Notes under the pieces: model-generated | Told to the model about the DNA's origin: nothing | The model's input: the letters and a program-made list of their open reading frames with translations, nothing else | Database searches by the model: none | Made by a program: the position numbers and the translations under genes | Assembly (NCBI GenBank): GCA_001724265.1 | Contig: MEDY01000027.1 | Span: 110,405 to 130,404 of the forward strand | Length of the DNA stretch: 20,000 nt | DNA from: Rhizaria sp. SCN 62-66 | Lineage: Eukaryota | Direction: 5' to 3' | In this document: positions 15 to 19,403 of the stretch, in pieces | How the letters are laid out: each line of letters opens with the position of its first letter | How positions within the stretch are numbered: position 1 is the stretch's first letter

Positions 15-3000
15 ATGTCGCGCTCTCCATTCTCGCAGCACCGCAGTGGTCTTCCCCCCCACGTGTCGCCAGTGATTTCGATGCCACAGAGTATCTCGCC
101 CATGCCCTCGCATTCGACCGCTGCATTTGTGACAGTGGATGCCCCCTCAGTGGCACACACACTCACTACGGTGCAAGGTCTTCACCGGGTTGCCGTGCGT
201 CTTGTTACGCCGTCCGTGCGTGCTGCTGTAAATACTTTTTTGACATCTAATCAGCCTGGCGTCGCTGCTGCTGCGCCTGCGAGCACGTCTTTGCCCATGA
301 CTTCGCTTGACATCCCTGTTAGCGGACAGGTAACGCGGCCGCGTGACCCTTCGTCACCTGGCACACAGCCTGCACTTGGCCGCGTCGGGATCTCTCTTGC
401 GCGCCCGCCGAGTCGCCAGGCCGCATCCATGGCTGCTTTATCTTCACAGCGCCACCTGGTTTCTGGTTGCCTGCGCGCTCCGGCGCTTAAGGGGGTGTCA
501 CGTTTCATTGTTGCGGCCGGCTCAGTTGTGGCGACGCGCATTGCGGCAAGCAACCGCGCGCTAGCACCCTTTGCGAGCCCAGCGCATGTTGTGCGTGCGC
601 ATGAGCTGCGCTGTTCCGCAATACATAGTGTTGAGGCCGCTGCGCGTAGTCGTGCTGCAGCCGCGGCCGCTGCGGCGCGCATGGTTCAGCAGTCCCGTGA
701 AGCTAACCAGCGCGTCGTTGAGAGCCTTATTCACCCTCATACCAGCGGTGCTTCTGCAACAGGCAGTGATGTGCGCAGCAAGCTCCGCAAGAACCCGCGC
801 AGCCTTGGTCAGCATATTCCCCATAACGCTGACCTTGCAGCGGGCGCAGACATTGTGTTCGACGCAGATGACGAGGTGCTGTTTGCAGACGAAGGTGAGG
901 AAGAAGATATCCACATCAATCGTCCTTCCTCCGCAAATCTCCATCACCAACAAGAAACGGCGAATGTTGCGCACACTGCACCTCAACGCCTTCCTCACAA
1001 AAAAGACTCGTCAGGCGACAACAAGAACTCCTTTAGCAAGCGCGGTGTAAACATGACTGAAGCTGAAGAGCATTTCCTGAACGCACTGTTTGGCCCCGAT
1101 GTGCTTTCCTCACCCCCGTCGCTTCCGCTCCTTTCATTCCCGTTTCCGGTGACTCCAGTTGGTTTCGTCGCCGCTGGTGGCTCAGCGGCCATTGCGCTTC
1201 CAACCTCGGCTGATCCTCCGGCGCGTGTTGGCACCACGGCAAGTCTCGAGCTATCTGTCATGCGTTCAACCTCGCGCTCTGCTCCCGCCGCGGCAGCCTC
1301 CGTTTTACTGCGTGTGCGTGTTCCTGTATTCTCATTGTCTGCACCCGCACCGCAGGTTTTCACTGTTGACTTTGAAGGTTTTTCTCGCACAGCGGCACAC
1401 GCGCTGGCGGCGTGTAAGGCACCTGCTGGCGCAGCCGAGACGCTTGCCGCTCTGACAGCATTTCACCGCCGTGTTGAGACTTTCCGTGCGCAGCACCGTA
1501 CGGCTGCTGCAGACAATGCCGCTGGCGCGATGTCGGATCGCGTGGCTGCCGTGCTGTGGCAGACGTTGCACGGTGCGGCGCTACCGACATGCGACTCCGA
1601 AGCCGACACATGGGCATTACTGGGGACGGCGTATGGTGGCGTCGTGCCACTCGCTGCGGCAGGCTCCTCCTTTGCAACTGACGCGGCTGCGCTTGGGTCA
1701 TCGGCGCTGCATGCCACGGCTACTGGGATTAATGCTGGCCTAACAAGCTCTCTGCCGACTTCAGCTACGCCCGCTCGGTATAACGCTTTGTCACTCACAT
1801 CTGCACCTTACGTTGCGCGTGCATTGCTTTTTTCTCCAATCGCGCACCGCACTGCGCCTGCTGCAGGCTTTGCCGCACTTTCTGGTGCTGATGGTTTATT
1901 TACCGCGATGGCTGCTAATGCAGCTGAATTTGAGGCTTCCAGTGATAAATTGCATTCAAGTTCAGCGGCGCGGACCTGGAGCTCGTCGCGCAATGCAGTC
2001 TGGGGTGATCTTCCGTTTCTGTACGCAACATATGGCATCTCAACAGCATCATTTGGCCGTGGTAGTGCGGCGACTGAGTTCCCCACCATTGCTACTGGCT
2101 CAGGTGCACCAATCTCGCTGGTTTTTCCCGCCGCAGACCACGACGCGACTGTGCGCGCTACGGCCGCCACTGTCGCTGAGGGTATTGCCGTGCATGCTCA
2201 GGCTTCGATTTACGGCGCCGCACCGCTGCGCAGTCATGGTTTTGTGAGCGTCGAAGAAGCCCAGTCGCAGCCCTCTCTTAACAAGCAGGTACTGTCCTGG
2301 TATCAGGCAGCTGCAGTGCCGCAGAACAAGACCGCTGGTGCTACTCGCGTACTACAGCGCACCACAAGTTCTGCTTGTGACGCAAATGATCATGCCTGGC
2401 GCACGCTGTCGGCTCTTCGTGTGCCGTCATCTGTGGACGATGTGCTTGAAGCCATCGACAATGAGCGTCTGCTTGTCGTTTCTGCCGCGTTGCAAACGCT
2501 AGCTGCATCCGGCTACGGTGACCACGTTGTTGCTGTTGCAGAGTCCACAGACACTCCCGCTAGTGGAGCGCTGAACGCGGCTACTGTGTGCGCGAAACAC
2601 ATGGGCGACGTGTCGACCGCAGCGGCTGATAATAATCGCACCTTGGCCGCAGTTTCTGAAGACTGGATTGTTTGGCGTGTCGCTGCGCCAAACACATTGA
2701 TGCTGTGTTTTGATGATCCTTCGGACGAACACGCAATATACTCAAAGGTGGAACACACGAAGAAGCGCTTTTTACTCGATACGGTTCCCGTGTTTAAGCG
2801 CTTTTTTGGTAGAGCTGGTTCCAGTAATGAAGCTGTAGGCGCACTCTCCATCCCTGAAGAAGACAGCGCGGCCGCCGCGGCAGTTATTCCTGGCTCGCCA
2901 ACCGCGGCCGCTGCGGCTGCTAACTCGCTTGCCGCTGCAGCTGTTGCGGGCAACACCGCGGCGCAGCTTGCAACGGTAGAGCCTGTTGAGATTGAGCCTT

Positions 3001-6000
3001 CACGCTTTAAGCAGGCCCTCGACTCTGTCGCCAACAAAGGACTGGGTTCTGGGTCCAATTTGTACCAGGCACGTACACAGCTTCTCGCTCGCGTTCCAGA
3101 CAGTAGGCCGACGACATCAAGCTCTTCCACCAGTGAAAGTGACCGCGCACGCGCGCGGCCACGTGTTGAGATCAACAAAGAAGCTTTGGCGGCTGCAGAG
3201 TCTCAGGGTCTTCTGTTCACGCCCGACACCGATAGCGCTAAATCTTTTACTTTCACGACTAACAACGCAGATGGGCCACGTGTTCCACTTGGCACACCTA
3301 TTGCATCATCATCACTTAGCATTGCAGCGGCGCTTGGTATGAGTAAAGAATCCACCACACCCGTCCCTGGTGGTACTGGTATTGCAACGTACCTGTATTA
3401 CGATAATGCAACGCGTGCTGCCATTTGCAACGCGTTCGGATGGCGTACGGTTGTCAAGCCTGGCACAGTGCTGATTAAGGAGGGTGAGGAATGTGACAAG
3501 ATGTTCATTATTTACCGTGGCGTATGCCGTATTGAAAAGGCTGTCGAACTTGTGGTGCCGCGCTCAGGTACCTCTCTATCTGCCAGCGCATCTGCCATCG
3601 GCGTTCAAGAGAAAAAGGACTCTGTATTGGCACGTGTGAACTTACGGAACCTTCATTTGGGACTCATCACCTCTGGACAGCTTGCCGGTGACGAGTCGTG
3701 TCTGCTTGCGGGACCCTCGCCTGTAACGGTGTGTACAGTTACTGCTAACACGGAAGTGTTTGTTATTGCGCGTGAAGCCGTTTTAAGGCTGTTTCCTCCA
3801 TCACTGCTGCGGCATTTGACGTCAGACGCGCGCGAGCGGCTTATGTGGCACCACCACCGTTTATCGCACATCTTAGAGCGGCTTAACCCTATCACGGCTG
3901 TTGTTGCCGCTGCTGCGCAAAGTGGCATCTTGGCTGATATCCAGCCTGCCGAGCGGAGGTTAGGACCATACGAACTGCCGTCAATTATTGCGCTTGAGCG
4001 TGATGCGCGCGCGCGCGACACAAGCGAGTTGTCACTCTCGGTCGACGTGTTGCAGGTGATGCGCCGCAGTGCCGCTTTTGCGACCACGCGGAACAAGCTT
4101 GTTGCTGCAGGTATGGGCGACATCTCGCTTGCAGGTCGCGGCGGAGGTGTGCTGCCCGCTCTCTCGACACTTACGGCTGCCTTTGGTAGTAACCCCGCGC
4201 TACTCAACTCGGTCGTGCGACCCACAGTACCAATTAACACAAAGGTTAAATCTGCCGCCGCTGTTGCTGCTGCCGCTCCTGGAGTGTTTTCTGCGACTCT
4301 CTCCCTTAAGAATTCTGTGGGTGGCAACCACGCTGATGGCGCGCTGCGTGACCCGCTGACGGGCCAGCTGATGCCGACAGAGGTGGTTGACCCTATGACA
4401 GGGATATCGACACCTTTCCAGCCGCGCAGTGGAGCTGCAGCTGATCAAGCGCTGGGTGTCTCATCAAAGTCACGCGCGGACCTGCCGCTCAAGGATCTCG
4501 TTGAGCGTTCGCGTGCTTTCCTTGCCAAAGAACTTGCTGACGCTGCATTGCAAGACGGAACACGTGAGCATGGGGCGGGCTATCTTACGGGTTCCGCACT
4601 GCTTCACGCCGCTAAACGTTATCTTCATGAGGGTGCACTCACTGGTGTGCCTGCCAGCACCTCTCATCAACAACAACTTAACGGACGTCGCCATGCATTC
4701 AATGCCACAAGCATGGCAAGCGGCAAGCCAAAACGTCAAGTAACTGTGCGGCGTGTTGCTGGTGGGTTATCAACAATGGTTGCGGGTGTTGAGTCGTCAG
4801 TATCGAGCTCGTTGACGGCAGAGACCAAGGCTACAATTGCAAAGCGCGAAGGTGTGACGCTGAGCACTGATCTTGCAACACGCCTGACACCGATCTCTTC
4901 AGCGAGTCCCGCGACACACTCGCGCGCTGAAGCGTGCTTACAGCTCGCTCAGCGCATTGATGCACAGCGGCTGCGGCGGACACAGCAAGACTTTGCGCCG
5001 CCTGTATGGTATGCTCAGACGACGCTGGGAGCCGACACTGCAGCGACCAGTAAAGTGCACCGTCCACTTGAAGAGCTTGAGACAAAGTCCGTTGCTGCTC
5101 CCACGGCGACAACCGAGATTGATGGCACTGTTTTGCCTGCGCCGTCGCAGTCCGAGCAGCCAGTCATGACTGTCTCAGAACTGGCCGTGTCATCCGTGGC
5201 AGCGCTCTATGCGCAACAACAGGCACGCGCGCGATACCGCCCTGCACTGCCTGTTGCGGCGCTACACAGTGCGATTGCACGCCACATCGATCATGTGCGT
5301 CGTGGTGCGGCTTCGATTACAGCCGACGGACTGGATGCCACAGCCGCGAAGCTGGGCACGCTTACACCTACAGCTGAGCTTCCTGTCTTACCTACGCTGC
5401 CAATGTTTGTTGATGAAAGTGCACCCGCAAGTCTGAGCGATAGTGACCCCGATTTGCGTTCAAGTCGGAGAGACCCTGACAATGAGCGCGATGAGCGTTT
5501 GTGCAAGCCTGCAGCGCAAGCAGCAAGTGCTGAACTCGATCCTGAACTTGTCGCAATGGCATTGGAGCCTACACTTAACTCTGAAAGCGCCTTTCGTGTC
5601 ACTACGCTGTTGGCAGCTGCTGAGGAACGTGAACGGCTCGCCTCCGATTCCACGGCACGTTTGCGCAACGGCGAGTTCGATGCTGACATGGATAATGATT
5701 TATTGCCCATGCGCGGACCCATTGACGCGGCCATGTTCACACGCTTCCGTGGCACAGAAAGTGGCATCAAGCCCGGTGATGCTGTGAACGTCGCGGCTGC
5801 TGCAGCCGGCTCTAACCCAGCCTCCTCCATTGCCGCATTTGGTTCTGCAGCACTGGCGAGCTCGGCCTCTGCAACGGGTCCGTTGCGGTCGCCAGATGAT
5901 CCTTTGGCACCCGGTACGGGCCCTCACGGTGGCACGGCTGGCAGCGGTTTTGTCAACAGCAGCGAAGAGGTCGCAATGCCTTACTTCAAGTACCAGGGCT

Positions 6001-9000
6001 TTGAGTCGCACGCCGCCGTGCTTCTTACCGCTGGTCTGCGCAAAACAGTTGAGAACCAGTATATCCCTTCAGCACACACCCTGCGCGTGGGTAAGCTTAC
6101 TTTTTCCTCTCTTGATGGTGGTGTTGACGGTGGCGTTGGCAGCGGACTGTGTCTTGAAGCGTCTGTGCGCCTTCCACCGCGTCCCTTCACACGCGGTGCT
6201 GAGGCGCCTGAACAGGTGGACTTTCTCCATCCAGGCGCAGCTGCCGCCATTGTCGGTGCCGCACACGCACATGCTGCGCGCACAACTGCCAGCAAGGAAG
6301 TGCTGAGCGCTGAGGCCGCATCCGTAGCTGCTGCAAATGTGCGTTCTGCAACGGGTGTTTTAACTGCCGCGGCAAAACCTTCTCGCATTAACAACCAAAA
6401 AGAGATGCGCCGCGGTGCACCGGCAGCTGCGCCAGATGAGGTGCCAGGGCGTTTCTTGTCTTCAACGATGGACCCACTGACTCTGCGTTCGGCATCACTG
6501 CTCTCGGGCGCGTGGATGGGCGGAGGCGCCACTGGTATCCCGCATCTTGTCCCACCTGATGCGTCGCTAGTGAGCCCCGCTGAGGGCGCGCTCGCGTCAG
6601 CTACTACTATCCTCGGCGAGCTTAGCAGTCTCAGCACTGGCGGCGTCGCATCTCTCACGCGTGGCGAAAATAATGTAGCAGTACCTCCGCTGATGGCTGT
6701 AAGCGGAGTCATGGCTGCTGCGCTTGCGCACGGACCACTCCGGCCCGCAGACCGCGATGTAACGGTTGTATCTGTGAAGACTGGCCGCGTGGTTGCATTG
6801 GCAGAACTTGTTGCTCCGAAGCATGGTGCTTCAGGTGGCAAAGTTACACTTACATCGACATCCAAAGTCATCGCTGAGAGTAACACTGCATCAGTGACGC
6901 AGAAACAACAAACCCTAGATATGACGAAACCAGGTGCTGCACTTCTTGAGCAAGACTTGACGCCCGGCTTGCGTGCCGTGCTTTCAAGTGCTGTAGCGGG
7001 TCAAGGCGCACGCACTACTCCAGTCGCGATGCGCGAGTCACAAGCTCAGTATTTGAGTGCGGAGGCTGGCCTGGTAAGTTACGTTGGTATAAACAAAGCA
7101 CTCAAAGACTCAGCGTCTGCAGTTCATGCAGCAAGTGGAAGTGAAGCTGCTCCTGATGCGCACGCGAATGATGCTGTCGTTGCAGCAAGCGCTGCGGACG
7201 CAATGCAACGCGCCAACTCTGTTGCTCGTGCTGCGGGTGCCGCGCGCGACACTGCAACGCCCGTGAACGAGTTCATTACTGTGGCTGTTACGAAGCAACC
7301 GACTCTTCCTCGTGCCGTCAAGGTTGACCGCGTTGTAATCGCGCAGGAGCTTGCCATTGCGGCACAAGAATCAAGCCTTGCAGCTGCGGCTGCAGCCAAA
7401 TCAGCTGCAGCTGTGGCAAAGCAAGCTGCCGCAACTGTGTCTCAAGCTGAAACTAAGCCTCACTATGCCCAAGCACTTGACCGCGACGCCGGAACTGCCT
7501 TTTCTGTCCGTCAAGACGGTGCTGATGATAATCTGCACAAGAAGAAATCTTCAGCACCTGTGCATGAGTCAGAATTTTTTGTAGAAGCCAAGAACAAGTA
7601 CACTGCACCATCGGCGGCTCTTCGCTCGCTCATTACGCGCGGTCCTACGTCGCTGGTCTCGCGCAGCGAACGCGAGGCGCAACTTGACGAGGCTGCGGCG
7701 CGCGTAAGCAAGCTTGCTGAGGCTGATGAAGATGAGGCCTCTCAAGCTCAAGATGATGATGACAACGATTTTGATGCTACAGACGCATGGCTTTTAGGAC
7801 TGGACCCCTCTGACTTTTCTGCACGCTCGCAGGCGGGTGCACCACTTACCCTGCGTGAGACGAGTGCACTTGTCTCAAAGGCGCGTCATGCGTTGACGGG
7901 TTCGCTGTCAGTCAAGTCATCAGCACCCAGTGCTGTGGCTTTTGCATCACAGTACAATTTGCAGGCAGATGCTCTGCGTGCGCTGCCATCAGCGAAGCCG
8001 CTGGCGTCGCATGGACAGGACGATGCGGCGGTTCGATCGGTCTCGCGGTCATCCCGCGCGGCGGCAGAGTTGTCTCGGCAGGAGCGTCTGCGCGTGGTCA
8101 ACTGGCTGAGTTCATTCTTAGCCGATGTGGGCGACGTCGACGACGGAGTTGCTGATGATCTATGGATGGTACCCTCACTCGCACCTTCAGCTGCAGCTGG
8201 TGCCGCCGCCGCAACTGTCACCGAAGAAGCCCGATTGCGCGCACGACACGAACGTTTGCGGCGTCTTGCACTGCCAAAGCGGCAGCCGGGCACTGCGGGA
8301 CTGTCAACACAGATGATTGCGCACGAAACCAAGGGTGACGCCACAGCCACTGCGGCCCGCTTCTCAGCCTCAACGCTTATTGCACTTGAAGATCCTTGGG
8401 GCAGCCGCCTTCGCAACAAGGGGGAGGCTGCACTGCGCCGCCGTGCTGTTGCTGCGATTGGACTTTACTTGACCCCCGATGATGCCGGAAAGGCCCTCGC
8501 AGCGACGATGGCGCAGACCACCGCTCGTGAGACGTTGCTTCCCTCTCATTCGCTCCCAGCCGCTTTCACCTCCGGTGTGCGGCTGAATCCTAGCACAGCT
8601 ACCTCTGGTGCAATTTCAGCTACAGTGGTTGCGAACAGTGAGCAAGACGACGAAAATCGCGCGTGGGAAGCGTTGCGCGCGCTAGCTGACGCCATTTCGC
8701 GGCCGATTCCTGGCCCCACAGTCTCTATGGCTGCTGCAGAGGCCGCTGCCTCCGAGGCTTCTGCCATTGTTGCCGAAAAGCACGCCGCCATGACAGCCAC
8801 AGGGCTTTGCGATGAAGATAAAATCGTAGAAAACAAATCAAAGACCGTTTACGCACCGTTCACACTGGTATCGATTGAAGGCGTAGCGTACGGTGAGACT
8901 GCGCTGACAGACAGCTTAGCGGGCGCTACTGTGCGGCTGCCAATGCCCGACACGGACGCTACAGTCACAGCGACGAACTTGACTGCACGTGCGCCACCAT

Positions 9001-12000
9001 TGCTGTCATTTTCTGATATTACGCCTAACGTGTCACTCCCGCTTCCGTCAACGGCAGCCGCTTTAATCGATCTCAAGAATCAGCGCTACGTCAAGCATAC
9101 GCCGCGCCTGTTTGAAGGCCGGCAGGCTGCCAAGCTGCGCGCAGCGCTGGCGGAGCGGGCGTTCCACACCAGGTTAGCGGCACTTATTAAGCGTGAGGGT
9201 GAGCGGCGTGCGCGAGAGATTGCTCGCGGTGAGGACCTCATGCTTGACGAGTTTACGGTGCCCGCAGAATCTGCGGGGACGTGTGCCAGTGCGCTATTGG
9301 GCTCTGGTACTGGTGATATCACGCCGCGACTTGATGGTGATGTGTATCAGCAGACTCCCACGCGTGGGCGGTCTAGCAGCCGCGGTGAGTCCAGTGGCAG
9401 CCGCAATGGTTCGCGGTCGCCCTCACGCACAGGTCCGACGCGAAGTCGTACTCTTGCAGCGGTGTCACCGCAGCCTGATCGGGCCAGTGGTGGCGCTCGC
9501 TTTGAGTATGACGCTGCGCAAGATGAGTGGGTTCTTCGGCGCCCAGAAACCATGTCGCCACAGCTGCGCCGCAGGCTCGCGCAAGCTGATAGTGGTTGTG
9601 ACTCACATGGGCCAAGAAGCGCAATTGATGGTAGCGGTCCGCCCCAACAAAAGTTTCTCTCCTTCTCTGCTCTTGCGCGTCAAAGCGCACAGATGCCCTC
9701 GACTTCTGTTGTGCCGCAAGTTGGGTCTGAGTCTGCGATGCTCGGGGCCGCAATGTCACGCTCACTTAACGCATCCGCTCGCCTGGCTGATGGTGATGCC
9801 ACAGCTGCGGTGGTGTTGCCCTCCGCCGCACTGACTGCGCGCCGCTTTGTTCACAACGCTGCTCTAAATGCAACCAAGCAGCCAACTTCAGCTGAGCCGC
9901 AGCCTGAGGATGGCGACTTGACGCAGCGTCAGCGCTTGTCACGCTTCGAAGTGCGCCATCACAGTCTTGGTGACCTTAACATGGCGCTTGCCCCCGAGTC
10001 AGCGCAGAATGTTGTATTTGACTCAGGATCTATTGCTGGGACTGCGCCTGTGTCAGTGCCATTGCAGCAAATGAATGAAGTGGAGAACGCTCCGGCGCGC
10101 GTGCAACCTGTGTCTGCGATGCGCCCAGCACAACCCGAGTACCACATGCATCGCGACCTCTGGGAACAAGCTTCTAACGTTGATGCCTCCGCATTGCCGT
10201 CTGCAGACAGTGTTATTCCGGAGGGCATGCTTCGCTACGCCCCCGCCACAGATAAAGCACCCGCACCTCTTGTGCCTGCACCCACTGCGGAAACGCACGC
10301 GACGCGAGTACTCGGTGGTGATGATGGGGAGCAGGTGTACTCGCTGTTTGACTTTGGTGCGACGTTACCATATGTGCCTTCTAAACTCGTAACGGCGAGC
10401 ACAGTGGCTGGCCGTGGCACTGCGACGACGATTGCAGAGGATGAACATTTCCGTTCGATCGTGGTGACGTCACAGCTGGTTGACCTCTACGCCATCTTCC
10501 GTGCGCATCTGGAGGCGCGTGAGCGCTTTATCACTGACGCTGCCCGAGCTTCTGCTGCTGCCACAGCCGCTGCTGCTCGCGAAGGCGACGCGCAGGCTGC
10601 CGCTGCGCCATTGGACGCGCCTGCTGTGCTCTCAACACTGGGCTCTGACGGTGCAGCGCAGTACGTGACACAATGGGTGAGCGGCCGCGTGCAAGGCATG
10701 ATGGCGGGCCGGCCTGCGGCGGAGCAGCGTGCAGCTGTGGAACTGTTGGCCGATCTTGTGCGCGGCGCGTCGTGGTCGCACCAAGTTGCACTCTCACGGC
10801 TCCGCGACCGCGTCTCAGTTGAGGTTGCCCGTTGTGCTGCTCGTGAAGGCTCAGGCCCCGGCGCTAGTGCCGCGCTCGCTGCTGCACTGCGCTCCGATGG
10901 CCGCGCCAAGGTTGTCCCTCCCCCAGCAGGTCCACGTGCTGGGGCAGATGAGGGCGATTACGCTGACGCGCTGCGCAAGGACGAGCTTCGTCGCACGCAG
11001 ACCGGTGTGACATGGGTCGCCCCTGCCGAAGCTTCTGATGCACTGGATGTCTCCGCGCGACAATGCCAGGAGGACCAGCGTGCAGTGACCAACGACGCCG
11101 TGGCGCGGCTAATCAAGTCTAGCGCGGTGCCACTGGGTGCGGACAATGCGTTGTCAGCCACCGCGTTGCCGTTGCCATCACCGCCTGCAACTTTGAGCAC
11201 TGTGCCGCCCACTGTGGCCCTCAATCTCTCGCACACACCGACCCCAACGTCTGCTGTGTCTACATTGAGCGCACAGCGCATGGGTAGGGCATCACTGCTG
11301 TCGGTGGACATCTCAAGTGACTCGAACCCTTCGTCTGCAGCAGGATCCCCGGCCGCAGGGTCGCGTATTCACTCACCGCCGCTGGCTGCCGCGCTCGCCA
11401 CGCCGCTCGCGTTTGCCGGCGCATGGTCTGGTGCCGGTTTTACGCCCCGTAATGGGACTGGCAGCGCAAGAGACCAGCGGCCCGGGTCGATCAAGCCGCC
11501 CTCGCGTCCGCAGTCACGCCCGCCGCCGGACCAGCAGCGCCGCCGCCGCGACGTCGCGCCCGTGGTGAGCCCACGCAGCAGCGCTGCAGCCATGGCCGCG
11601 ATGCAGGAAGAGGTGCAGCGCCAGCGCGCCAAGCAGGGTCTCACGTCTGCAGGTATTTATACGAACACTGCCAGTGGCGGCCTCGCACCGCTCTGGGGCG
11701 CGACTCCTATGCAGGACCGCTCCGCACGTGTGCCAGCCGCTGGTCGGCGCGAGCTTTTCCCCGAGCTTGGCGGCAGCAGCAGCGCTCGTGGTCCTACAAC
11801 AACACTGCACAAGACCAAGAGCAAGAGTACGGTGGCAGACGCGATCGACGGAACAGGTCTGGGTGTGACTGAGCACATGGACCGCTTGCGCGAGCATGCG
11901 GCCTTTGCAGATGCAGTTGCTACTGGCACAATCGCTCTCTACAATACGCCCCCTGTTGTCGCACCCGTGCCGCAGCAGTTGCGTGCCCCGGGCCAGGTTC

Positions 12001-12035
12001 CCGATGCCCTTCCCAACATCACACGGCGTAACTAA
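15..12035 (+). CDS. Giant (>=4006 aa) Ala/Ser-rich, largely low-complexity protein with cyclic-nucleotide-binding (CNB/CAP_ED-like) domain(s); may start upstream of the window
   Basis: 12 kb with no stop codon, ending in TAA followed by an abrupt switch to AT-rich sequence. Consistent codon pattern (GCT, GTT, CTT, CGT/CGC). The frame is also open from base 3 to the ATG at 15, so the true start is unknown. CNB motifs at ~3399-3818. Confidence 0.85.
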   Translation: MSRSPFSQHRSGLPPHVSPVISMPQSISPMPSHSTAAFVTVDAPSVAHTLTTVQGLHRVAVRLVTPSVRAAVNTFLTSNQPGVAAAAPASTSLPMTSLDIPVSGQVTRPRDPSSPGTQPALGRVGISLARPPSRQAASMAALSSQRHLVSGCLRAPALKGVSRFIVAAGSVVATRIAASNRALAPFASPAHVVRAHELRCSAIHSVEAAARSRAAAAAAAARMVQQSREANQRVVESLIHPHTSGASATGSDVRSKLRKNPRSLGQHIPHNADLAAGADIVFDADDEVLFADEGEEEDIHINRPSSANLHHQQETANVAHTAPQRLPHKKDSSGDNKNSFSKRGVNMTEAEEHFLNALFGPDVLSSPPSLPLLSFPFPVTPVGFVAAGGSAAIALPTSADPPARVGTTASLELSVMRSTSRSAPAAAASVLLRVRVPVFSLSAPAPQVFTVDFEGFSRTAAHALAACKAPAGAAETLAALTAFHRRVETFRAQHRTAAADNAAGAMSDRVAAVLWQTLHGAALPTCDSEADTWALLGTAYGGVVPLAAAGSSFATDAAALGSSALHATATGINAGLTSSLPTSATPARYNALSLTSAPYVARALLFSPIAHRTAPAAGFAALSGADGLFTAMAANAAEFEASSDKLHSSSAARTWSSSRNAVWGDLPFLYATYGISTASFGRGSAATEFPTIATGSGAPISLVFPAADHDATVRATAATVAEGIAVHAQASIYGAAPLRSHGFVSVEEAQSQPSLNKQVLSWYQAAAVPQNKTAGATRVLQRTTSSACDANDHAWRTLSALRVPSSVDDVLEAIDNERLLVVSAALQTLAASGYGDHVVAVAESTDTPASGALNAATVCAKHMGDVSTAAADNNRTLAAVSEDWIVWRVAAPNTLMLCFDDPSDEHAIYSKVEHTKKRFLLDTVPVFKRFFGRAGSSNEAVGALSIPEEDSAAAAAVIPGSPTAAAAAANSLAAAAVAGNTAAQLATVEPVEIEPSRFKQALDSVANKGLGSGSNLYQARTQLLARVPDSRPTTSSSSTSESDRARARPRVEINKEALAAAESQGLLFTPDTDSAKSFTFTTNNADGPRVPLGTPIASSSLSIAAALGMSKESTTPVPGGTGIATYLYYDNATRAAICNAFGWRTVVKPGTVLIKEGEECDKMFIIYRGVCRIEKAVELVVPRSGTSLSASASAIGVQEKKDSVLARVNLRNLHLGLITSGQLAGDESCLLAGPSPVTVCTVTANTEVFVIAREAVLRLFPPSLLRHLTSDARERLMWHHHRLSHILERLNPITAVVAAAAQSGILADIQPAERRLGPYELPSIIALERDARARDTSELSLSVDVLQVMRRSAAFATTRNKLVAAGMGDISLAGRGGGVLPALSTLTAAFGSNPALLNSVVRPTVPINTKVKSAAAVAAAAPGVFSATLSLKNSVGGNHADGALRDPLTGQLMPTEVVDPMTGISTPFQPRSGAAADQALGVSSKSRADLPLKDLVERSRAFLAKELADAALQDGTREHGAGYLTGSALLHAAKRYLHEGALTGVPASTSHQQQLNGRRHAFNATSMASGKPKRQVTVRRVAGGLSTMVAGVESSVSSSLTAETKATIAKREGVTLSTDLATRLTPISSASPATHSRAEACLQLAQRIDAQRLRRTQQDFAPPVWYAQTTLGADTAATSKVHRPLEELETKSVAAPTATTEIDGTVLPAPSQSEQPVMTVSELAVSSVAALYAQQQARARYRPALPVAALHSAIARHIDHVRRGAASITADGLDATAAKLGTLTPTAELPVLPTLPMFVDESAPASLSDSDPDLRSSRRDPDNERDERLCKPAAQAASAELDPELVAMALEPTLNSESAFRVTTLLAAAEERERLASDSTARLRNGEFDADMDNDLLPMRGPIDAAMFTRFRGTESGIKPGDAVNVAAAAAGSNPASSIAAFGSAALASSASATGPLRSPDDPLAPGTGPHGGTAGSGFVNSSEEVAMPYFKYQGFESHAAVLLTAGLRKTVENQYIPSAHTLRVGKLTFSSLDGGVDGGVGSGLCLEASVRLPPRPFTRGAEAPEQVDFLHPGAAAAIVGAAHAHAARTTASKEVLSAEAASVAAANVRSATGVLTAAAKPSRINNQKEMRRGAPAAAPDEVPGRFLSSTMDPLTLRSASLLSGAWMGGGATGIPHLVPPDASLVSPAEGALASATTILGELSSLSTGGVASLTRGENNVAVPPLMAVSGVMAAALAHGPLRPADRDVTVVSVKTGRVVALAELVAPKHGASGGKVTLTSTSKVIAESNTASVTQKQQTLDMTKPGAALLEQDLTPGLRAVLSSAVAGQGARTTPVAMRESQAQYLSAEAGLVSYVGINKALKDSASAVHAASGSEAAPDAHANDAVVAASAADAMQRANSVARAAGAARDTATPVNEFITVAVTKQPTLPRAVKVDRVVIAQELAIAAQESSLAAAAAAKSAAAVAKQAAATVSQAETKPHYAQALDRDAGTAFSVRQDGADDNLHKKKSSAPVHESEFFVEAKNKYTAPSAALRSLITRGPTSLVSRSEREAQLDEAAARVSKLAEADEDEASQAQDDDDNDFDATDAWLLGLDPSDFSARSQAGAPLTLRETSALVSKARHALTGSLSVKSSAPSAVAFASQYNLQADALRALPSAKPLASHGQDDAAVRSVSRSSRAAAELSRQERLRVVNWLSSFLADVGDVDDGVADDLWMVPSLAPSAAAGAAAATVTEEARLRARHERLRRLALPKRQPGTAGLSTQMIAHETKGDATATAARFSASTLIALEDPWGSRLRNKGEAALRRRAVAAIGLYLTPDDAGKALAATMAQTTARETLLPSHSLPAAFTSGVRLNPSTATSGAISATVVANSEQDDENRAWEALRALADAISRPIPGPTVSMAAAEAAASEASAIVAEKHAAMTATGLCDEDKIVENKSKTVYAPFTLVSIEGVAYGETALTDSLAGATVRLPMPDTDATVTATNLTARAPPLLSFSDITPNVSLPLPSTAAALIDLKNQRYVKHTPRLFEGRQAAKLRAALAERAFHTRLAALIKREGERRAREIARGEDLMLDEFTVPAESAGTCASALLGSGTGDITPRLDGDVYQQTPTRGRSSSRGESSGSRNGSRSPSRTGPTRSRTLAAVSPQPDRASGGARFEYDAAQDEWVLRRPETMSPQLRRRLAQADSGCDSHGPRSAIDGSGPPQQKFLSFSALARQSAQMPSTSVVPQVGSESAMLGAAMSRSLNASARLADGDATAAVVLPSAALTARRFVHNAALNATKQPTSAEPQPEDGDLTQRQRLSRFEVRHHSLGDLNMALAPESAQNVVFDSGSIAGTAPVSVPLQQMNEVENAPARVQPVSAMRPAQPEYHMHRDLWEQASNVDASALPSADSVIPEGMLRYAPATDKAPAPLVPAPTAETHATRVLGGDDGEQVYSLFDFGATLPYVPSKLVTASTVAGRGTATTIAEDEHFRSIVVTSQLVDLYAIFRAHLEARERFITDAARASAAATAAAAREGDAQAAAAPLDAPAVLSTLGSDGAAQYVTQWVSGRVQGMMAGRPAAEQRAAVELLADLVRGASWSHQVALSRLRDRVSVEVARCAAREGSGPGASAALAAALRSDGRAKVVPPPAGPRAGADEGDYADALRKDELRRTQTGVTWVAPAEASDALDVSARQCQEDQRAVTNDAVARLIKSSAVPLGADNALSATALPLPSPPATLSTVPPTVALNLSHTPTPTSAVSTLSAQRMGRASLLSVDISSDSNPSSAAGSPAAGSRIHSPPLAAALATPLAFAGAWSGAGFTPRNGTGSARDQRPGSIKPPSRPQSRPPPDQQRRRRDVAPVVSPRSSAAAMAAMQEEVQRQRAKQGLTSAGIYTNTASGGLAPLWGATPMQDRSARVPAAGRRELFPELGGSSSARGPTTTLHKTKSKSTVADAIDGTGLGVTEHMDRLREHAAFADAVATGTIALYNTPPVVAPVPQQLRAPGQVPDALPNITRRN
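3399..3818 (+). other. cNMP-binding-like domain within the giant ORF, with a degenerate phosphate-binding cassette
   Basis: VKPGTVLIKEGEECDKMFIIYRGVCRIEK ... LGLITSGQLAGDESCLLAGPSPVTVCTVTANTEVFVIAREAVLRL matches the CNB pattern (GxxIIxEGxxGDxFYIIxxGxV ... GxxFGExAL...PRxATVxA...xxxxLxR). Canonical GE and PR read GD and PS here. Confidence 0.8.
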
Positions 12036-12141: not shown

Positions 12142-12440
12142 TGTAGTATTAAAAGTATCTCACCACAATTTACAATAGCAATGCAACCTCATTCAATTCA
12201 ACAACCTTATTTTATGTAGCAAAACTTTACTTTATCAAATTCAAATACCAATAAACGACTTTTCCTTTCCCCAACACACATACTCACACACAATGTCTAA
12301 CCGTCAACAAAAAAAGTTTGTCCGACTCAGAGAGGAGCGAAGCGGAGCGGAGCAGCAAAAAAGAATGCCGCGCAACGTCCGCGCGGGTGGGAAGTTGCGC
12401 CAGACAGCGGCGAAAGCGTGCGCGGAGGGAGCAAAAAGAC

Positions 12441-12450
12441 AAAAAGAAAA
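12441..12450 (-). terminator. RNA polymerase III oligo-T terminator of tRNA copy 1
   Basis: Minus strand reads TTTTCTTTTT directly after the acceptor stem, with another T5 at 12437-12433. Confidence 0.75.
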
Positions 12451-12522
12451 GGTTCTAACGAGGATTGAACTCGTGACCTCAGCTTTACTAAAGCTGCGCT
12501 ACTACCACTGAGCTATAGAACC
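12450..12522 (-). tRNA. tRNA-Thr(AGT), copy 1, discriminator T73, no intron, no encoded CCA
   Basis: Cloverleaf GGTTCTA-TA-GCTC AGTGGTAGT AGC-G-CAGCT TT AGT AA AGCTG-AGGTC-ACGAG TTCAATC CTCGT-TAGAACC-T. 7-bp acceptor stem, 5-bp anticodon and T stems, A box TAGCTCAGTGG, B box GTTCAATCC. Confidence 0.92.
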
Positions 12523-12993
12523 GTACGATTGTTGGGTTCCGCGCTGAAAAATTAGGGTATTAGTAGTAATTTACAACTCACAATTTTTAGAAGTGTTGTA
12601 ATCATCATTAGTCGTTGACCAGACATAAACTGGTCAAAAGTTTTCCTTTCGATCAAAAGCATGAGCAACACATTTTATAAGTGCTTATTATATCAAAGTC
12701 GACACATATGATGAAATGAAAAGGAATTAAAAGTCGCTGTTCGGACGACGGACAGATAAGCCAATAGAATTCTGGGAATAGCGAATAAACATAAGAGTAC
12801 ATGTATTCTTCGAGAGTTTAAATCATGGAGACTTACAGCGCTACATTTGGTCCATACTAAAGTAAGTAACGTTGCTTAGGTCACCAAAGTGGCCCGATTA
12901 TAACACAAAATATAATTGGAAGTGACAAAAACTGTTGTTTTTCGCTTTCAGAAGCAGCAGTAGCAGTAGCAGCAGGAGCAGTCGGCGACTTGA

Positions 12994-14490
12994 TCACTGC
13001 GAGATGAAGAGATTAGGCTCCTCGCGCTTGATCCAGTGGAGCACGCGATGGCTGGCCGCAAGCGCAGTTTCCTTGGACGTCAGCGGGAGAAACGTTGCGT
13101 AGAGCTCAAAGTCGCCTGGCCGCACGATCCCGAGCACAACAGCGTCCTGCCCGACTTCGTAGTAGAGCGTGTGGCGCGTGCACGCGGCCGCGGAGGCCGC
13201 CAGCGCCTTGGCCGTCTGCTGTGCGAGCGCGGAGCGGCCCGCGTCGGCGGGCTGCGGGTGCCCGCCGGCGAGCGCGCCGCACGCGCGCTGGTAGCGCCGC
13301 AGCAGTTTCATGCCGCCCGCGTCGGGCGCCGCCGAGTCGACGTACGGCTCCGCGGGCGCCGAAGTGACGAACTGGTTGAGCTGCATAGAGCGGAAGAGGA
13401 AGTGGCGCAGGTCGGGGCTGCCGACGGCGATGTCGTCGACAGTCCACGCCTGCAGCGACATGGCCTCGGCCAGGTCCTGTGTCAGCTCGCGCGAGTCCAG
13501 CACCTTGCACACCTCGCCGCGGGCCTCGCGCAGCGCCTTGACGTCGCTGGGGTCCGTGGTAACAAAGGCAAGGCACACGTCGCGCGCCACGTAGCTGGAG
13601 TAGACGTACACGAACGAGTCGGGCGAGTGGCACGGCAGGCAGAACGGCGCCCACGAGTCGGACGACCGTAGCGACTGAGAGTTGGTGAGGAAGTTGGTCA
13701 GCAGCAGCATGTCGTTGACGTACAGCGGCGCGTCCTTCTCGCGGCTGAAGGCCACCAGGCGGCCGCCGGCGATAAGCACGGAGTACAGCAAACGCTTGCT
13801 CTTGCCCTTGGTGCCCTTCTTGAGCGCGGTGAGGATCTTGGCGCGCGAGGCCTTGTTCAGGCGCAGCGCGGGGACGGCGTCAAGCAGCAGCGCGGGCGTG
13901 CGCTCGGCGTCGTTGATGACGTCGTGCAGCATGAGCTCCGTGCCGGCCATGAGCAGGCGGATGTCGTACGTGGGGTGGTCCTCAAGCACGCGGTGCACGC
14001 TGCCGCTGAGCACGCTGAGGATCTGCTGGTGCGCGAGCGAGAGCTGCTGCTGCAACTGCGACACCGTCTCAGGCGAGCGTGAGATGCACACCATGTAGAT
14101 CGGCCCGCGGAACAGGAAAACAAACTTGTAGTCGCCAGCGTAGATGGCCTGGATGTTGTCTCCCAGCCGTTGGAAGTTGGCGATGAAGGATGACATCACG
14201 CCCATGAAGTCGGAGATCTCTGTCTCGTCGCCGTAGCGCGAAAAGATGGGACGGCCCGCCCAGCTAAAAATGAAGATGTGCTTCTCGTGCGCGTACCACT
14301 CCGGCATGCGGTGGTTCTGGTGGATGTACTTCTGCACGCGATGGTGCTTGGCCGCCCAGTATGAGTTCGAGTTGGCGTCATCCTCCGGCGTCGACGAGGT
14401 TGGCGCGTCTACGCTCGACGGAACCGTGGTTGCCAGCGGCGCCACCAACGTTGACGCCGAGGAGGCCCGAGAGCGACTCCCTTGAAGCAT
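12994..14490 (-). CDS. MON1: Vacuolar fusion protein Mon1/SAND (subunit of the Mon1-Ccz1 Rab7 GEF)
   Basis: 498-aa ORF with family motifs KHIFIFSWAGRPIFSRYGDE, FLFRGPIYMVCIS, YDIRLLMAGTE, DMLLLTNFL, WAPFCLP, LRHFLFRS, FELYATFLPL and C-terminal WIKREEPNLFI. Strong C/G third-position bias. Confidence 0.95.
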   Translation of the reverse strand: MLQGSRSRASSASTLVAPLATTVPSSVDAPTSSTPEDDANSNSYWAAKHHRVQKYIHQNHRMPEWYAHEKHIFIFSWAGRPIFSRYGDETEISDFMGVMSSFIANFQRLGDNIQAIYAGDYKFVFLFRGPIYMVCISRSPETVSQLQQQLSLAHQQILSVLSGSVHRVLEDHPTYDIRLLMAGTELMLHDVINDAERTPALLLDAVPALRLNKASRAKILTALKKGTKGKSKRLLYSVLIAGGRLVAFSREKDAPLYVNDMLLLTNFLTNSQSLRSSDSWAPFCLPCHSPDSFVYVYSSYVARDVCLAFVTTDPSDVKALREARGEVCKVLDSRELTQDLAEAMSLQAWTVDDIAVGSPDLRHFLFRSMQLNQFVTSAPAEPYVDSAAPDAGGMKLLRRYQRACGALAGGHPQPADAGRSALAQQTAKALAASAAACTRHTLYYEVGQDAVVLGIVRPGDFELYATFLPLTSKETALAASHRVLHWIKREEPNLFISQ

Positions 14491-14982: not shown

Positions 14983-16176
14983 ATGGACTCGCTGCTGGAC
15001 GAGCAGCATGGCGTGGAGATGAAGTCCTTGCTGTCTTCGACGCAGGACACGAGCACAGTCCCGCTTGTGAGTGCCGCGTCGACGACTGCTGACGTGGACG
15101 ACGATGATGACGATGACCAAACCTCGTCCAAGGCCTTCCTGCGCTCCGACGACAGTGAGATGACCCTCCGCGAGCGCTCCACGGGAGCGAGCAAGTCTGC
15201 CGCGAAACGCTTTACGAAGTTCGTGGCCAAGGCCGACTTCTTCCCTAAGGCCGAGGAGGAGCTGACAGTGCATACAGACTCCGGCGTGGCGCTGTCCATT
15301 GTCACGCTCGTCGTCATCGCACTGCTCTTCGCGAGCAATCTGCTCGCCTACCTCTCGCCCGTCACGCACGAGCACATGACCGTGGACGCGCTGGCGGGCG
15401 AGCGGCTCGACATCCGGCTCGACATTGAGTTCCACGCGCTGCCCTGTTCGCTGGTCAAGCTGGATGTGATGGCCGTCACTGGCGAGCACCACGAGGCGCT
15501 GGCGCAAAACATCGACCTCACCCCGGTCCCGGCCTCGGCGCGCTTTCCGCAGGACGGCTGCCGCCTCGCGGGCTTTGCGCGCGTCACCAAGGTCGCCGGC
15601 AACATGCACGTCGCCGTCGGCTCCGTCGAAGCGGGCTCTGCGCACCACCGGCACAAGTTCTCGCTGCGCGAGCTCAAGGCCTTCAACTCCTCGCACACGG
15701 TGCACGCGCTGTCCTTTGGCGCTGCCTACCCGGGGCTTATCTCCCCGCTTGACGGCGTCACGGCCGTCGCCGCCGCGGGCCCCACGCAGTACCAGTACTT
15801 CATCAAGGTCGTGCCTACGACCTACGCCGCCGAAGGCGCGGAGCCCGTGGCCACAAATCAGTACTCGGTCACCGAGCGCGCCACGGTCATCGACACCAGC
15901 GCCGCTGCCGCGGGTGCGGGCGGGATCCCAAGCGTGTTCTTTGTGTACGACTTCTCACCGTTCCGCGTCGTGATCGAAACGGCGCGGCCGCCGCTGTCGC
16001 ACTTCTTGGTGTCTGTCTGCGCCGTCATCGGCGGCGTCCTCACGGTCTCGGGCATTGTGCACTCGCTCTACTACCACGGGACCAGGGCCGTCGCTGCCCG
16101 CCGCGCCGCGCGCGCGCTGCAGGCCGACCTCGACGGCGGCCACGCGGGCATGCAGTCGCTACTCTCGCCCCGGTGA
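14983..16176 (+). CDS. ER-Golgi intermediate compartment protein, Erv41/Erv46 (ERGIC1-3) family
   Basis: 397 aa. ADFFPKAEEELTVHTDSGVALSI plus TM1; LDIRLDIEFHALPCSLVKLDVM; GCRLAGFARVTKVAGNMHVA; FNSSHTVHALSFG; YQYFIKVVPTTY; TNQYSVTE; GIPSVFFVYDFSPFRV; FLVSVCAVIGGVLTVSGIV (TM2). The paralogue cannot be assigned by eye. Confidence 0.95.
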   Translation: MDSLLDEQHGVEMKSLLSSTQDTSTVPLVSAASTTADVDDDDDDDQTSSKAFLRSDDSEMTLRERSTGASKSAAKRFTKFVAKADFFPKAEEELTVHTDSGVALSIVTLVVIALLFASNLLAYLSPVTHEHMTVDALAGERLDIRLDIEFHALPCSLVKLDVMAVTGEHHEALAQNIDLTPVPASARFPQDGCRLAGFARVTKVAGNMHVAVGSVEAGSAHHRHKFSLRELKAFNSSHTVHALSFGAAYPGLISPLDGVTAVAAAGPTQYQYFIKVVPTTYAAEGAEPVATNQYSVTERATVIDTSAAAAGAGGIPSVFFVYDFSPFRVVIETARPPLSHFLVSVCAVIGGVLTVSGIVHSLYYHGTRAVAARRAARALQADLDGGHAGMQSLLSPR

Positions 16177-16821: not shown

Positions 16822-17937
16822 TCAGTTAGCCATGTGGAGCTGGTTGGGCGCGATCCCATGCTGCTCGAAGACGGGCCCAGGGATGAGGGCCTTAAGCTCC
16901 TCGCCGAGCGAGCGATAGTAGGCCATCTCCTCGACCATGCCCGCGGCGCCGGCCCAGTCCTCGGCGGCGAAACGCGGGGCCAGGTCGCGCGCGAAGTCGG
17001 CGAGCCGCGCCTCGTTGGCGGAGAAGATGCGCATCAGCGTCTCCGTGTCGCCCGCGTCGGCCGCGTCCGCGACTTCCTCGCGCAGCTCCATGATCGTGGC
17101 CAGCACTTCGCCGCGCGCGGTCGGGCGCGCGCCTTCGCCCACGAGCGCGGGCGCGCGCAGTGAGAGCAGGTAGCGCGCGCGCGCCAGAGGGTCCGCGAGC
17201 GTGCGGAAAGAGGTGTTGATCGCGGCGGCGTGCGCGGACGAGTACTCCTGCTCCTGCTCCGACTTGGTGCAGAACCGGTCCGGGTGCACGCGCCGCTGCA
17301 GGCTCTTGAAGCGCGCCGCCAGCGCCGCGGCGTCCAGGTCGTACGTTTGCGGCAGCTCGAAGAGCGAGAAGTGGTCCGTGGCGAAGGGCGGCTGGATCGT
17401 GCCGCAGCTGGAGCAGAACACGCCGGGGCATTGGTGCGCCTGCTTCACGGGACACGCCCAGCACAGCGCAGCCGTCGGCGTGGCGCCACAGGGACCGACG
17501 ACGACGCCAGCGCCGGCGCCGGCGACGTCAGAGGACGAAGACGCGGCTGCGGGGCCGCAGGCGGAGGGAGCGCATGTCGTGCCACAGGAGGAGGAGGAGG
17601 AGTTGGGGGAGTTGCGGGAAGACTGTAACGAGCACGGGGCGGCCGGAGGCGCGGGCTGCTTGGTGAGCGGACACGACGGGGGCGCGCCGGCGGGCGCCGA
17701 ATGCGAGTGGTGGCAAGTTCCGCAGCAAGCGCCAGTGTGGGAGAAGTGAGCCACCGAGAGAGTGAAGGGAGTAGTCGCCGAGACGGAACACGACGTGCGT
17801 GGACGCACGGATGGGGCGTAGACGGGTCCGTATGTCGGGCGGAGCGCAGAGAGCTCCGTGGTTAAGCACCGCGAAGCAGCCGAGACAACTGTCGATCCTG
17901 CGAAGAGGCTGCGCTGAAAAAAAGTCCTGGCCAGCAT
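16822..17937 (-). CDS. HSCB: Mitochondrial Fe-S cluster co-chaperone HscB/HSC20/Jac1
   Basis: 371 aa. Arg/Ser-rich presequence-like N-terminus; CWAC...FCSSCGTIQPP tetracysteine motif as in HSC20; J domain DHFSLFELPQTYDLD...LQRRVHPDRF; INTSFRTLADPLARARYLL; acidic C-terminal helix IMELREEV...MAYY. Confidence 0.95.
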   Translation of the reverse strand: MLARTFFQRSLFAGSTVVSAASRCLTTELSALRPTYGPVYAPSVRPRTSCSVSATTPFTLSVAHFSHTGACCGTCHHSHSAPAGAPPSCPLTKQPAPPAAPCSLQSSRNSPNSSSSSCGTTCAPSACGPAAASSSSDVAGAGAGVVVGPCGATPTAALCWACPVKQAHQCPGVFCSSCGTIQPPFATDHFSLFELPQTYDLDAAALAARFKSLQRRVHPDRFCTKSEQEQEYSSAHAAAINTSFRTLADPLARARYLLSLRAPALVGEGARPTARGEVLATIMELREEVADAADAGDTETLMRIFSANEARLADFARDLAPRFAAEDWAGAAGMVEEMAYYRSLGEELKALIPGPVFEQHGIAPNQLHMAN

Positions 17938-18936
17938 AACAGGCGTTTTCTACAGAATAATGAATAATGGAATCAAAAAGAAATCGTGAGAATACATACA
18001 GATTGTGCGACAAACGAGTAAGCACAAGGATATCTTCGCTTGAATATTCGGAGGAACGAGAGTCCGATTGCGATTCCCTGATGTCCGACCTTCGAGGACC
18101 AGTCCGCATCTGACACGCCGCCGCGCGGTTGGTTTTGCAGGTTAATCGCGTTCGCCCCCTAAACAACGTCAGATCGCTTTGAGATTTGTTATCTTAATTA
18201 ATCTATGGGATTAAGTATGTTTTTCAAACGATTTCTCTTCTTTTGCTGAAATACGCTGCCTGCTGGATTCGCCTCTGTATGGTGCACCTGGTGCTTGGTG
18301 AATGTGGGCGAATGTGCTGCGGTGATGCCGTCGCCGCATGAGTGAAGCAATGTAATGGATTTCTGACGTTGTTTTGGTAGTGCATTGATGGTTGACGATG
18401 CTGTTGAGCGATGATAACAACTATTTGAAGGCTGAATGAGCGTGCATACTGGGTAATAGATCAATGTGGCCAAGGTTCGCAACTCGTCCCGTTTGTCTCA
18501 GCTGTCTCATTTGTTGCCGCATATCGACTCGTACATCTTGATCGATCGACTGCGTTTTACTTAGCTAATACACACTGAGGCGGTGGAATTTGCGTCTAAT
18601 TAAGCTTGTTCTGGCGAGTGGGCACCTTAAGTGGTGCAGCAAATGCAAGCCAAGGCGACAATGACTGGCATCGAGAGCGTTGTGCATGTTACATTTAAGC
18701 TTGTATGTTATTCTTTAGGGTAAAAAAGTTAAACAGTTTTCTATTTAAAAACAAGACAAGGGTTTTATTGCGAGATTCGTTGTTCTATACAGAAAAATCA
18801 GTCAACAATTGAGTTCTCACAGTGCTCGTAAATTACTATTAATACTTTAATTTTTGGGCTCGATCCCCAACAATAGCACCGTTCATCAGTAGCGACTCAA
18901 TAGCGAGTCGTTCACAGACTCCGGCTGCAATCGTAC

Positions 18937-19009
18937 GGTTCTATAGCTCAGTGGTAGTAGCGCAGCTTTAGTAAAGCTGAGGTCACGAGTTCAATCCTCG
19001 TTAGAACCC
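18937..19009 (+). tRNA. tRNA-Thr(AGT), copy 2, discriminator C73, anticodon at 18970-18972
   Basis: Positions 1-72 identical to copy 1, with the same cloverleaf and A and B boxes. Confidence 0.9.
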
Positions 19010-19061
19010 GCTTTCGCCGCTGTCTGGCGCAACTTCCCACCCGCGCGGACGTTGTGAGGCA

Positions 19062-19070
19062 TTCTTTTTT
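19062..19070 (+). terminator. First plausible Pol III terminator for tRNA copy 2 (TTCTTTTTT)
   Basis: Only TTT occurs between the tRNA end (19009) and the T6 run at 19065-19070. Confidence 0.6.
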
Positions 19071-19403
19071 GCTGCTCCGCTCCGCTCTGAGTCGGACAGA
19101 CGTTTGTTGTTGACGGTTACACATTGTGTGTGTGTGTGTCGGAGCGGTTCTGCATGGGAGGCGCGATCCAAAACATCTCCGTCCCGGTGCAAATGTCACA
19201 CTCTGCGTATTTGGTGTATTAATACTGATCGATATAAAAATACACGTCAAAATGTAATATGGCTTTTTTGTTTGGATAATAATTTCATGTTTCCATTGCT
19301 TTGGTGTAATGGTATTAATAAGGTCAATCTTCACGATCTGAAAGGGTCTCATTGCGATATCCTTCTTGATTGTCAACTGACGATTGCGATGCGGCCGTTT
19401 TGT

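Follow-up and report, generated by a model that had tools for sequence, protein, structure and literature searches.

The stretch of DNA analysed here, 20,000 nt in length and called the window in what follows, carries two genes for tRNA-Thr(AGT), copy 1 and copy 2, among protein-coding genes that are without introns and have a G+C content of ~60% (Table 1). The 4006-residue open reading frame has one Pfam match only, a short cNMP_binding stretch at residues 1146-1174 that scores 29.6 bits against a cut-off of 27.5. The genes for the MON1/Fuz-like, ERV/ERGIC and HscB-like proteins form a block of three, which is flanked by the two tRNA copies with their homologous sequence (12278-12531 and 18928-19139). 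The copies lie in inverted orientation, an arrangement that could support inversion of the three genes between them as a block. When the ERV/ERGIC protein was compared with 5.8 billion cluster representatives, of which 8000 candidates were scored, the closest relative was 42% identical and only 12 of the 8000 had an E-value of 0.001 or less. With a best relative at this level of identity, the source of the DNA is a microbial eukaryote of a poorly sampled lineage. The stretch was found in metagenome runs from bioreactors, wastewater and activated sludge. The runs listed number 14, from 8 studies; part of the stretch is present in 12 of them and at least half of its words in 4, and the best holder, run X1, has 96% of the words.

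Table 1. Coordinates of genes and other features in the window
Feature	Position	Strand	Basis
Open reading frame, 4006 aa, uninterrupted, Ala- and Ser-rich	15-12035	+	
More distant homologous flank of copy 1, containing T7 (12309-12315) and GT-rich at its end	12278-12343	-	I3, blastn
Sequence in copy 1 that corresponds to the copy 2 trailer, with T6 12357-12362, downstream of the terminator cluster	12341-12418	-	I2
32-nt block, copy 1 only: terminator cluster T4 C T5 GTC T5, then a GC-rich tail	12419-12450	-	
tRNA-Thr(AGT) copy 1, 72 nt plus discriminator T (12450)	12450-12522	-	ARAGORN; Rfam RF00005 59.8 bits
Gene for longin-domain MON1/Fuz-like protein	12994-14490	-	
Gene for ERV/ERGIC protein	14983-16176	+	
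Gene for HscB-like protein	16822-17937	-	
57-nt piece absent from copy 1, displaces the common AT-rich upstream block	18871-18927	+	MAFFT alignment
tRNA-Thr(AGT) copy 2, discriminator C (19009)	18937-19009	+	ARAGORN; Rfam RF00005 58.7 bits
3' trailer predicted for the copy 2 precursor (55 nt), contains hairpin 19021-19061	19010-19064	+	
T6, first canonical Pol III stop past copy 2, offset +57 from base 72	19065-19070	+	
Homologous flank past the predicted terminator, ends in (GT)7 at 19126-19139	19071-19139	+	alignment

Both copies have a cloverleaf with the anticodon and pass the RF00005 gathering score of 29, which makes them nuclear Pol III type 2 tRNA-Thr(AGU) genes. Their matches to this family are the only Rfam matches at gathering scores in the whole 20 kb. 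Together the copies form an inverted repeat with ~330 bp of flanking sequence in common. The repeat consists of I1 (81 nt, 100% identity), which comprises the tRNA and the 9 nt upstream of it; I2 (78 nt, 97% identity), the next stretch downstream, which in copy 2 comes right after the deletion junction described below; and I3 (66 nt, 88% identity), further downstream. In a blastn comparison the copy 1 flank, 12417-12278, is 87% identical to that of copy 2 over 140 columns, and within the 20-kb window blastn found no further copies of the downstream block. Upstream of the tRNA a weaker similarity goes on in the MAFFT alignment, broken by a 57-nt piece that is present in copy 2 alone. An AT-rich block common to the two copies is found at about -49 to -22 in copy 1 and at about -106 to -79 in copy 2, a shift that might affect the transcription of copy 2. 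On either side of the tRNA, identity falls the further one goes, as a recent duplication or a conversion tract would lead one to expect. The 57-nt piece contains a 6-bp inverted repeat. At the end of the duplicated block both copies have a (GT)n or GT-rich run, located at 19126-19139 in copy 2 and at about 12273-12292 in copy 1.

The initial annotation had proposed that copy 2 lacks a 32-nt block exactly after tRNA base 72, and that the loss of this block changed the discriminator and removed the terminator. The alignment bears this out in each part. The block (12450-12419) occurs in copy 1 only and begins directly after base 72, copy 1 has T and copy 2 has C as the discriminator (position 73), and in copy 2 there is no run of four or more Ts between 19009 and 19065, the proximal terminator being missing. 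As the ends of the block have no microhomology, the placement of the indel is unambiguous, and the junction in copy 2 falls between 19008 and 19009. Measured from base 72, the T-runs of copy 1 are a T4 at +1, a T5 at +6, a T5 at +14, a T6 at +89 and a T7 at +136, while the single T-run of copy 2 before its T6 is a T3 at +4 (19012-19014). The T6 of copy 2 starts 56 nt past the discriminator at 19009, which leaves this gene with no T-run of at least four within 50 bp. A nearby T-run terminator is therefore present in one copy and absent from the other, and the gene body of copy 2 is otherwise typical. The T6 is common to both copies, and in copy 1 it has the position of a back-up terminator.

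Comparison with related loci indicates the direction of the change. In an exact scan with the word at the tRNA 3' end, one further locus was found in a metagenome contig collection (L001), with no matches in genome contigs and none in viral contigs. The tRNA-Thr of L001, which serves as the outgroup copy, matches the tRNA of the window over 77 nt at 100% identity and has a T-run directly behind it, and U73 is common to L001 and copy 1. A contig from run X8 that resembles copy 1 also has the 32-nt block behind the tRNA, with one letter changed. The proximal terminator and U73 are thus found in three of the four versions (copy 1, L001 and the X8 contig), from which it follows that the deletion in copy 2 is derived. 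Past the tRNA, L001 is unrelated to the copy 2 trailer except for short T-rich and GC words.

The tRNA-Thr of L001 belongs to a cluster on the minus strand (945-1282) with the order tRNA-Cys(GCA), tRNA-Cys(GCA), tRNA-Thr(AGT). There is a T7 after the first tRNA-Cys, and between the second tRNA-Cys and the tRNA-Thr there are 15 nt without a run of four or more Ts, a spacing that suggests that these two tRNAs are probably co-transcribed. The junction between the end of tRNA-Cys and tRNA-Thr seen in L001 recurs at 18932, where runs X3 and X8 show it in the form of loose ends; the source organism of the window is present in both of these runs. The X8 contig, which aligns to 18932-19139, joins an upstream flank of this Cys type to a downstream part like that of copy 1, and its trailer has the letters of copy 1 at both positions at which the two copies differ. 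This contig is either a further paralog, a strain variant or a chimera across the repeated tRNA.

Given two gene copies, a derived deletion and the absence of a closer run of four Ts, we think it probable that copy 2 is a tRNA paralog in which the former back-up terminator has become the sole one, and that its long trailer is cut off and degraded. Where transcription ends, how the transcript is processed and what becomes of the trailer are predicted here from the letters of the locus and from the published behaviour of the enzymes. According to this proposal, the tRNA-Thr(AGU) gene would have been duplicated with ~330 bp of flanks in inverted orientation, and copy 2 would later have lost the 32 bp directly behind base 72, a deletion that accounts both for the loss of the proximal T-runs and for C73. 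Pol III would start at the unchanged internal promoter of copy 2 and, as the proximal T-runs are gone, is predicted to run on for ~56 nt to the T6 at 19065-19070. Such read-through had been suggested before, and the prediction, with a precursor of ~133 nt, is a sound one in the light of the sequence and of what has been published on Pol III (PMC3141230, PMC4937561), the stop rule of the source organism being judged only by the T-runs that follow its other tRNA copies. The T3 (19012-19014) could cause partial termination. The primary transcript would consist of the tRNA, C73, a GC-rich trailer of 55 nt and, at its end, oligo-U. A cut by tRNase Z behind C73 would be followed by addition of CCA. 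As a by-product, the freed trailer would be degraded, or would at most be a passive fragment similar to tRF-1, and its hairpin may bias 3' processing toward the endonuclease.

The same features can be read as signs of impairment or decay in copy 2, a paralog that would then be poorly transcribed, matured or charged, its long transcript being noise removed by nuclear surveillance. Such a gene would supply little tRNA and be heading for loss. Three changes would fit such a gene, namely C73, the displaced upstream AT-rich block and the lost proximal terminator, and copy 2 differs from copy 1 in the immediate flank on either side. C73 is also the derived state, given U73 in copy 1 and L001. Extended pre-tRNAs are reported to be surveillance targets in yeast (PMC4937561), and for mammalian tRNase Z the efficiency of cleavage is reported to drop as the trailer lengthens (PMC9141469), which suggests that the maturation of copy 2 may be inefficient. 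However, the copy 2 trailer begins with G, and a G in this position is described as favourable for the mammalian enzyme (PMC9141469), and distant terminators are reported in many working human tRNA genes (PMC3141230). The gene itself shows no decay, since the tRNA body and the 9 nt upstream of it are 100% identical to copy 1, although gene conversion could account for this identity. On balance we regard impairment of copy 2 as unlikely, if worth keeping in mind.

Another possibility is that the 32-nt gap varies between strains, or that the metagenome assembly went wrong at the repeated tRNA, and the true copy 2 would then have a terminator as the other versions do. The stretch comes from bioreactor and wastewater metagenomes, and contigs of runs X3, X5, X7 and X8 were aligned to 18600-19400. 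Among the contigs listed from these runs none bridges 19008/19009 in the copy 2 form in any of the four, so that the junction itself is carried by the assembly of the window alone. The listed contigs also leave 19032-19139 uncovered in the copy 2 form, the one contig that covers it being the copy-1-like contig from X8. A contig of the X7 RNA library that has copy 2's own upstream flank ends its alignment at 19008 with 4 letters unaligned, and at this position X3 has only the form with the T-run, as a loose end. However, contigs break at 19008 because the copies diverge there, a break that is to be expected, and as the contigs seen are the listed ones, a hole in their cover proves nothing. The four runs compared are other than X1, the best holder of the stretch. 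The absence of microhomology at the ends of the block disfavours a false join across the junction, the two sides of which have no common word long enough to produce one. A gap that belongs to the assembly or to a strain rather than to copy 2 therefore seems to us rather improbable.

The initial annotation had gone further and had seen in the trailer a conserved hairpin (19021-19061) and in copy 2 a Pol III gene with two products, from which tRNase Z would free a tRNA and a structured RNA of ~60 nt. The hairpin is indeed the minimum-free-energy fold of the 41-mer, but it folds no better than shuffled sequences. Against dinucleotide shuffles the 41-mer of copy 2 (-13.6 kcal/mol) has z=-0.34, with 34.1% of 1000 shuffles folding as well, and its counterpart in copy 1 (-17.3 kcal/mol) has z=-1.17, with 12.8% of 1000 shuffles as good. 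The 60-nt trailer gives -18.5 kcal/mol and z=-0.85 in copy 2 (34/200 shuffles as good), its copy 1 counterpart -19.6 kcal/mol and z=-0.93 (35/200), and the reverse strand of the trailer -15.8 kcal/mol and z=+0.19 (101/200). In the fold of the 133-nt precursor, for which z=-0.68, the trailer hairpin is separate and the acceptor and T arms are intact. That the hairpin is the fold of minimum energy is no sign of selection; it is what any 55-nt stretch of such composition would form.

Conservation of the trailer leads to the same result. It had been proposed that both differences between the copies keep the fold. This is true of one, which exchanges G-U and G-C, but the other breaks a pair in copy 1, where 14 of the 15 hairpin pairs are kept and the broken one needs a shifted register. 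In RNAalifold, none of the 16 pairs is changed on both sides, and two sequences cannot show covariation; with two close copies and one distant one, the comparison of structure and covariation has low power. L001 keeps 7 of the 15 pairs in a MAFFT alignment that is unreliable at such divergence. The trailer of copy 2 and its counterpart in copy 1 are mismatched at 2 of 54 positions (96% conserved), and the flank past T6, a stretch that ought to be absent from any tRNA transcript, is mismatched at 6 of 70 (64 matches, 91%) with 21 gap columns. Conservation of the trailer is thus numerically higher than that of the flank, but the mismatches do not differ significantly (Fisher p=0.46). In copy 1, moreover, the hairpin sits behind three T-runs, and its similarity between the copies therefore cannot reflect a common role as a tRNA-linked RNA; this similarity reflects recent duplication.

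Searches for known families in the trailer were negative. In Rfam, 19010-19064 matches no family at gathering scores or at an E-value of up to 10. At E<=10 four matches were listed for 18800-19250, each of which lies elsewhere or is the tRNA itself; those below threshold, Plastid-ycf2 (on the strand opposite to the tRNA), mir-2_2 (18870-18935) and EBv-sisRNA-1 (19087-19120), are far below gathering. A dicistronic tRNA-snoRNA gene was considered and rejected, as the Rfam search at either threshold gave no snoRNA match in 19010-19064. A tRNA-linked pre-miRNA unit was rejected likewise, the hairpin being one of 15 interrupted pairs with the z-score given above and the trailer having no match to a miRNA family. 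In exact scans the trailer word had no matches in viral contigs and five in bacterial MAGs, of 19-21 nt only, where by our own arithmetic ~4 matches of a 19-mer are expected by chance in 596 billion bases, both strands counted.

A gene with two functional products nevertheless has a plausible transcript architecture. Its hairpin can form without disturbing the arms of the tRNA, one of the two substitutions exchanges G-U for G-C, and functional RNAs from long trailers have been raised as a possibility (PMC3141230, PMC4937561). Against these points stand a fold that is not above shuffles in either copy (z -0.34 to -1.17), the absence of compensatory pairs, a substitution that breaks a proposed pair and conservation that does not exceed that of the flank past T6. 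The copy 1 counterpart lies behind three T-runs, the sequence downstream in L001 is unrelated, 19010-19064 has no Rfam, snoRNA or miRNA match, and the window contains no more copies. With these results we rejected a conserved structured ncRNA, and we consider a second functional product of ~55-60 nt very improbable. It is about as doubtful, and perhaps slightly more so, that the deletion was the birth of a tRNA-linked small RNA, with copy 2 making from one Pol III transcript a C73 tRNA-Thr isodecoder and a stable U-tailed hairpin RNA of ~58 nt, freed by tRNase Z and with a role of its own; copy 1 would show the ancestral plain gene. A tRNA-headed, SINE-like retroposon made of a tRNA head, a body of unique sequence and a tail of simple repeats is scarcely credible, since for all the GT-rich end of the duplicated block there are only two copies in 20 kb, the homology begins well upstream of the tRNA and runs 70 nt past the internal T6, a gene identical to this perfect tRNA gene is part of a Cys-Cys-Thr cluster, the L001 locus has a different 3' flank, and in copy 1 three T-runs cut the tRNA off from the body. 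The proposals of a conserved structured small RNA, of a SINE-like RNA and of an undescribed ncRNA system are accordingly left without support, the tests of folding and of conservation both being against them.

A tRNA gene with a distant terminator and a discarded trailer, which is the reading we prefer for copy 2, has well described parallels. In human, at least 60 of 463 genuine tRNA genes are reported to have their first run of four or more Ts at a distance of at least 50 bp and to give pre-tRNAs with unusually long trailers (Orioli et al. 2011, PMC3141230). Copy 2 resembles these genes in that an intact tRNA gene has no such run within 50 bp, and in the predicted read-through to a downstream T-run followed by removal of the trailer by tRNase Z, as described there. 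Unlike in the human cases, the state of copy 2 can be traced to one 32-bp deletion, with a sister copy that keeps the proximal terminator, and copy 2 is a gene of a microbial eukaryote. In yeast, Pol III is reported to continue for 50-200 nt beyond many terminators, as far as secondary T-runs, the extended forms being unstable (Turowski et al. 2016, PMC4937561), and copy 2 is similar in the use of a downstream T-run as a back-up stop. The extended yeast forms are described as cleaved by tRNase Z and the extensions as degraded, and trailers with stem-loops as favouring the endonucleolytic route (PMC4937561, PMC3866640); two yeast pre-tRNAs with long trailers that form stem-loops are reported to need Trz1 (Skowronek et al. 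2014, PMC3866640). Read-through in yeast, however, is described as partial and as going past an existing terminator (PMC4937561), whereas copy 2 is without its first terminator. For this reason most or all primary transcripts of copy 2 would be of the long form.

The fragment predicted for copy 2 would be ~58-61 nt long, its accumulation being hypothetical, and the name tRF-1 usually covers small RNAs shorter than this. The likeness to tRF-1 fragments is in the ends, as these are described as reaching from the tRNase Z cut to the oligo-U end made by Pol III (PMC6765225). Units in which a tRNA head and a downstream RNA form one Pol III transcript and are separated by tRNase Z offer a further comparison, the same arrangement being predicted here. 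Plant dicistronic tRNA-snoRNA genes are such units, reportedly described by Kruszka and colleagues in 2003. Gammaherpesvirus-68 is reported to have tRNA-pre-miRNA units (PMC3141230). Unlike in either kind of unit, the downstream part in copy 2 has no snoRNA or miRNA match, its structure is not above chance, and it is not conserved outside the recent duplicate.

As it stands, copy 2 adds one gene to the tRNA genes with distant terminators, a class already described in human and yeast, and as such it matters little. What modest interest the locus has is in the pair. Two paralogs that differ by a clean deletion are a natural experiment on the part played by the proximal terminator and by N73 in tRNA expression, provided that the organism is one day grown in culture or its RNA sequenced in depth. 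If the trailer is a stable RNA, the pair would also document a tRNA-linked small RNA that arose by a single deletion.
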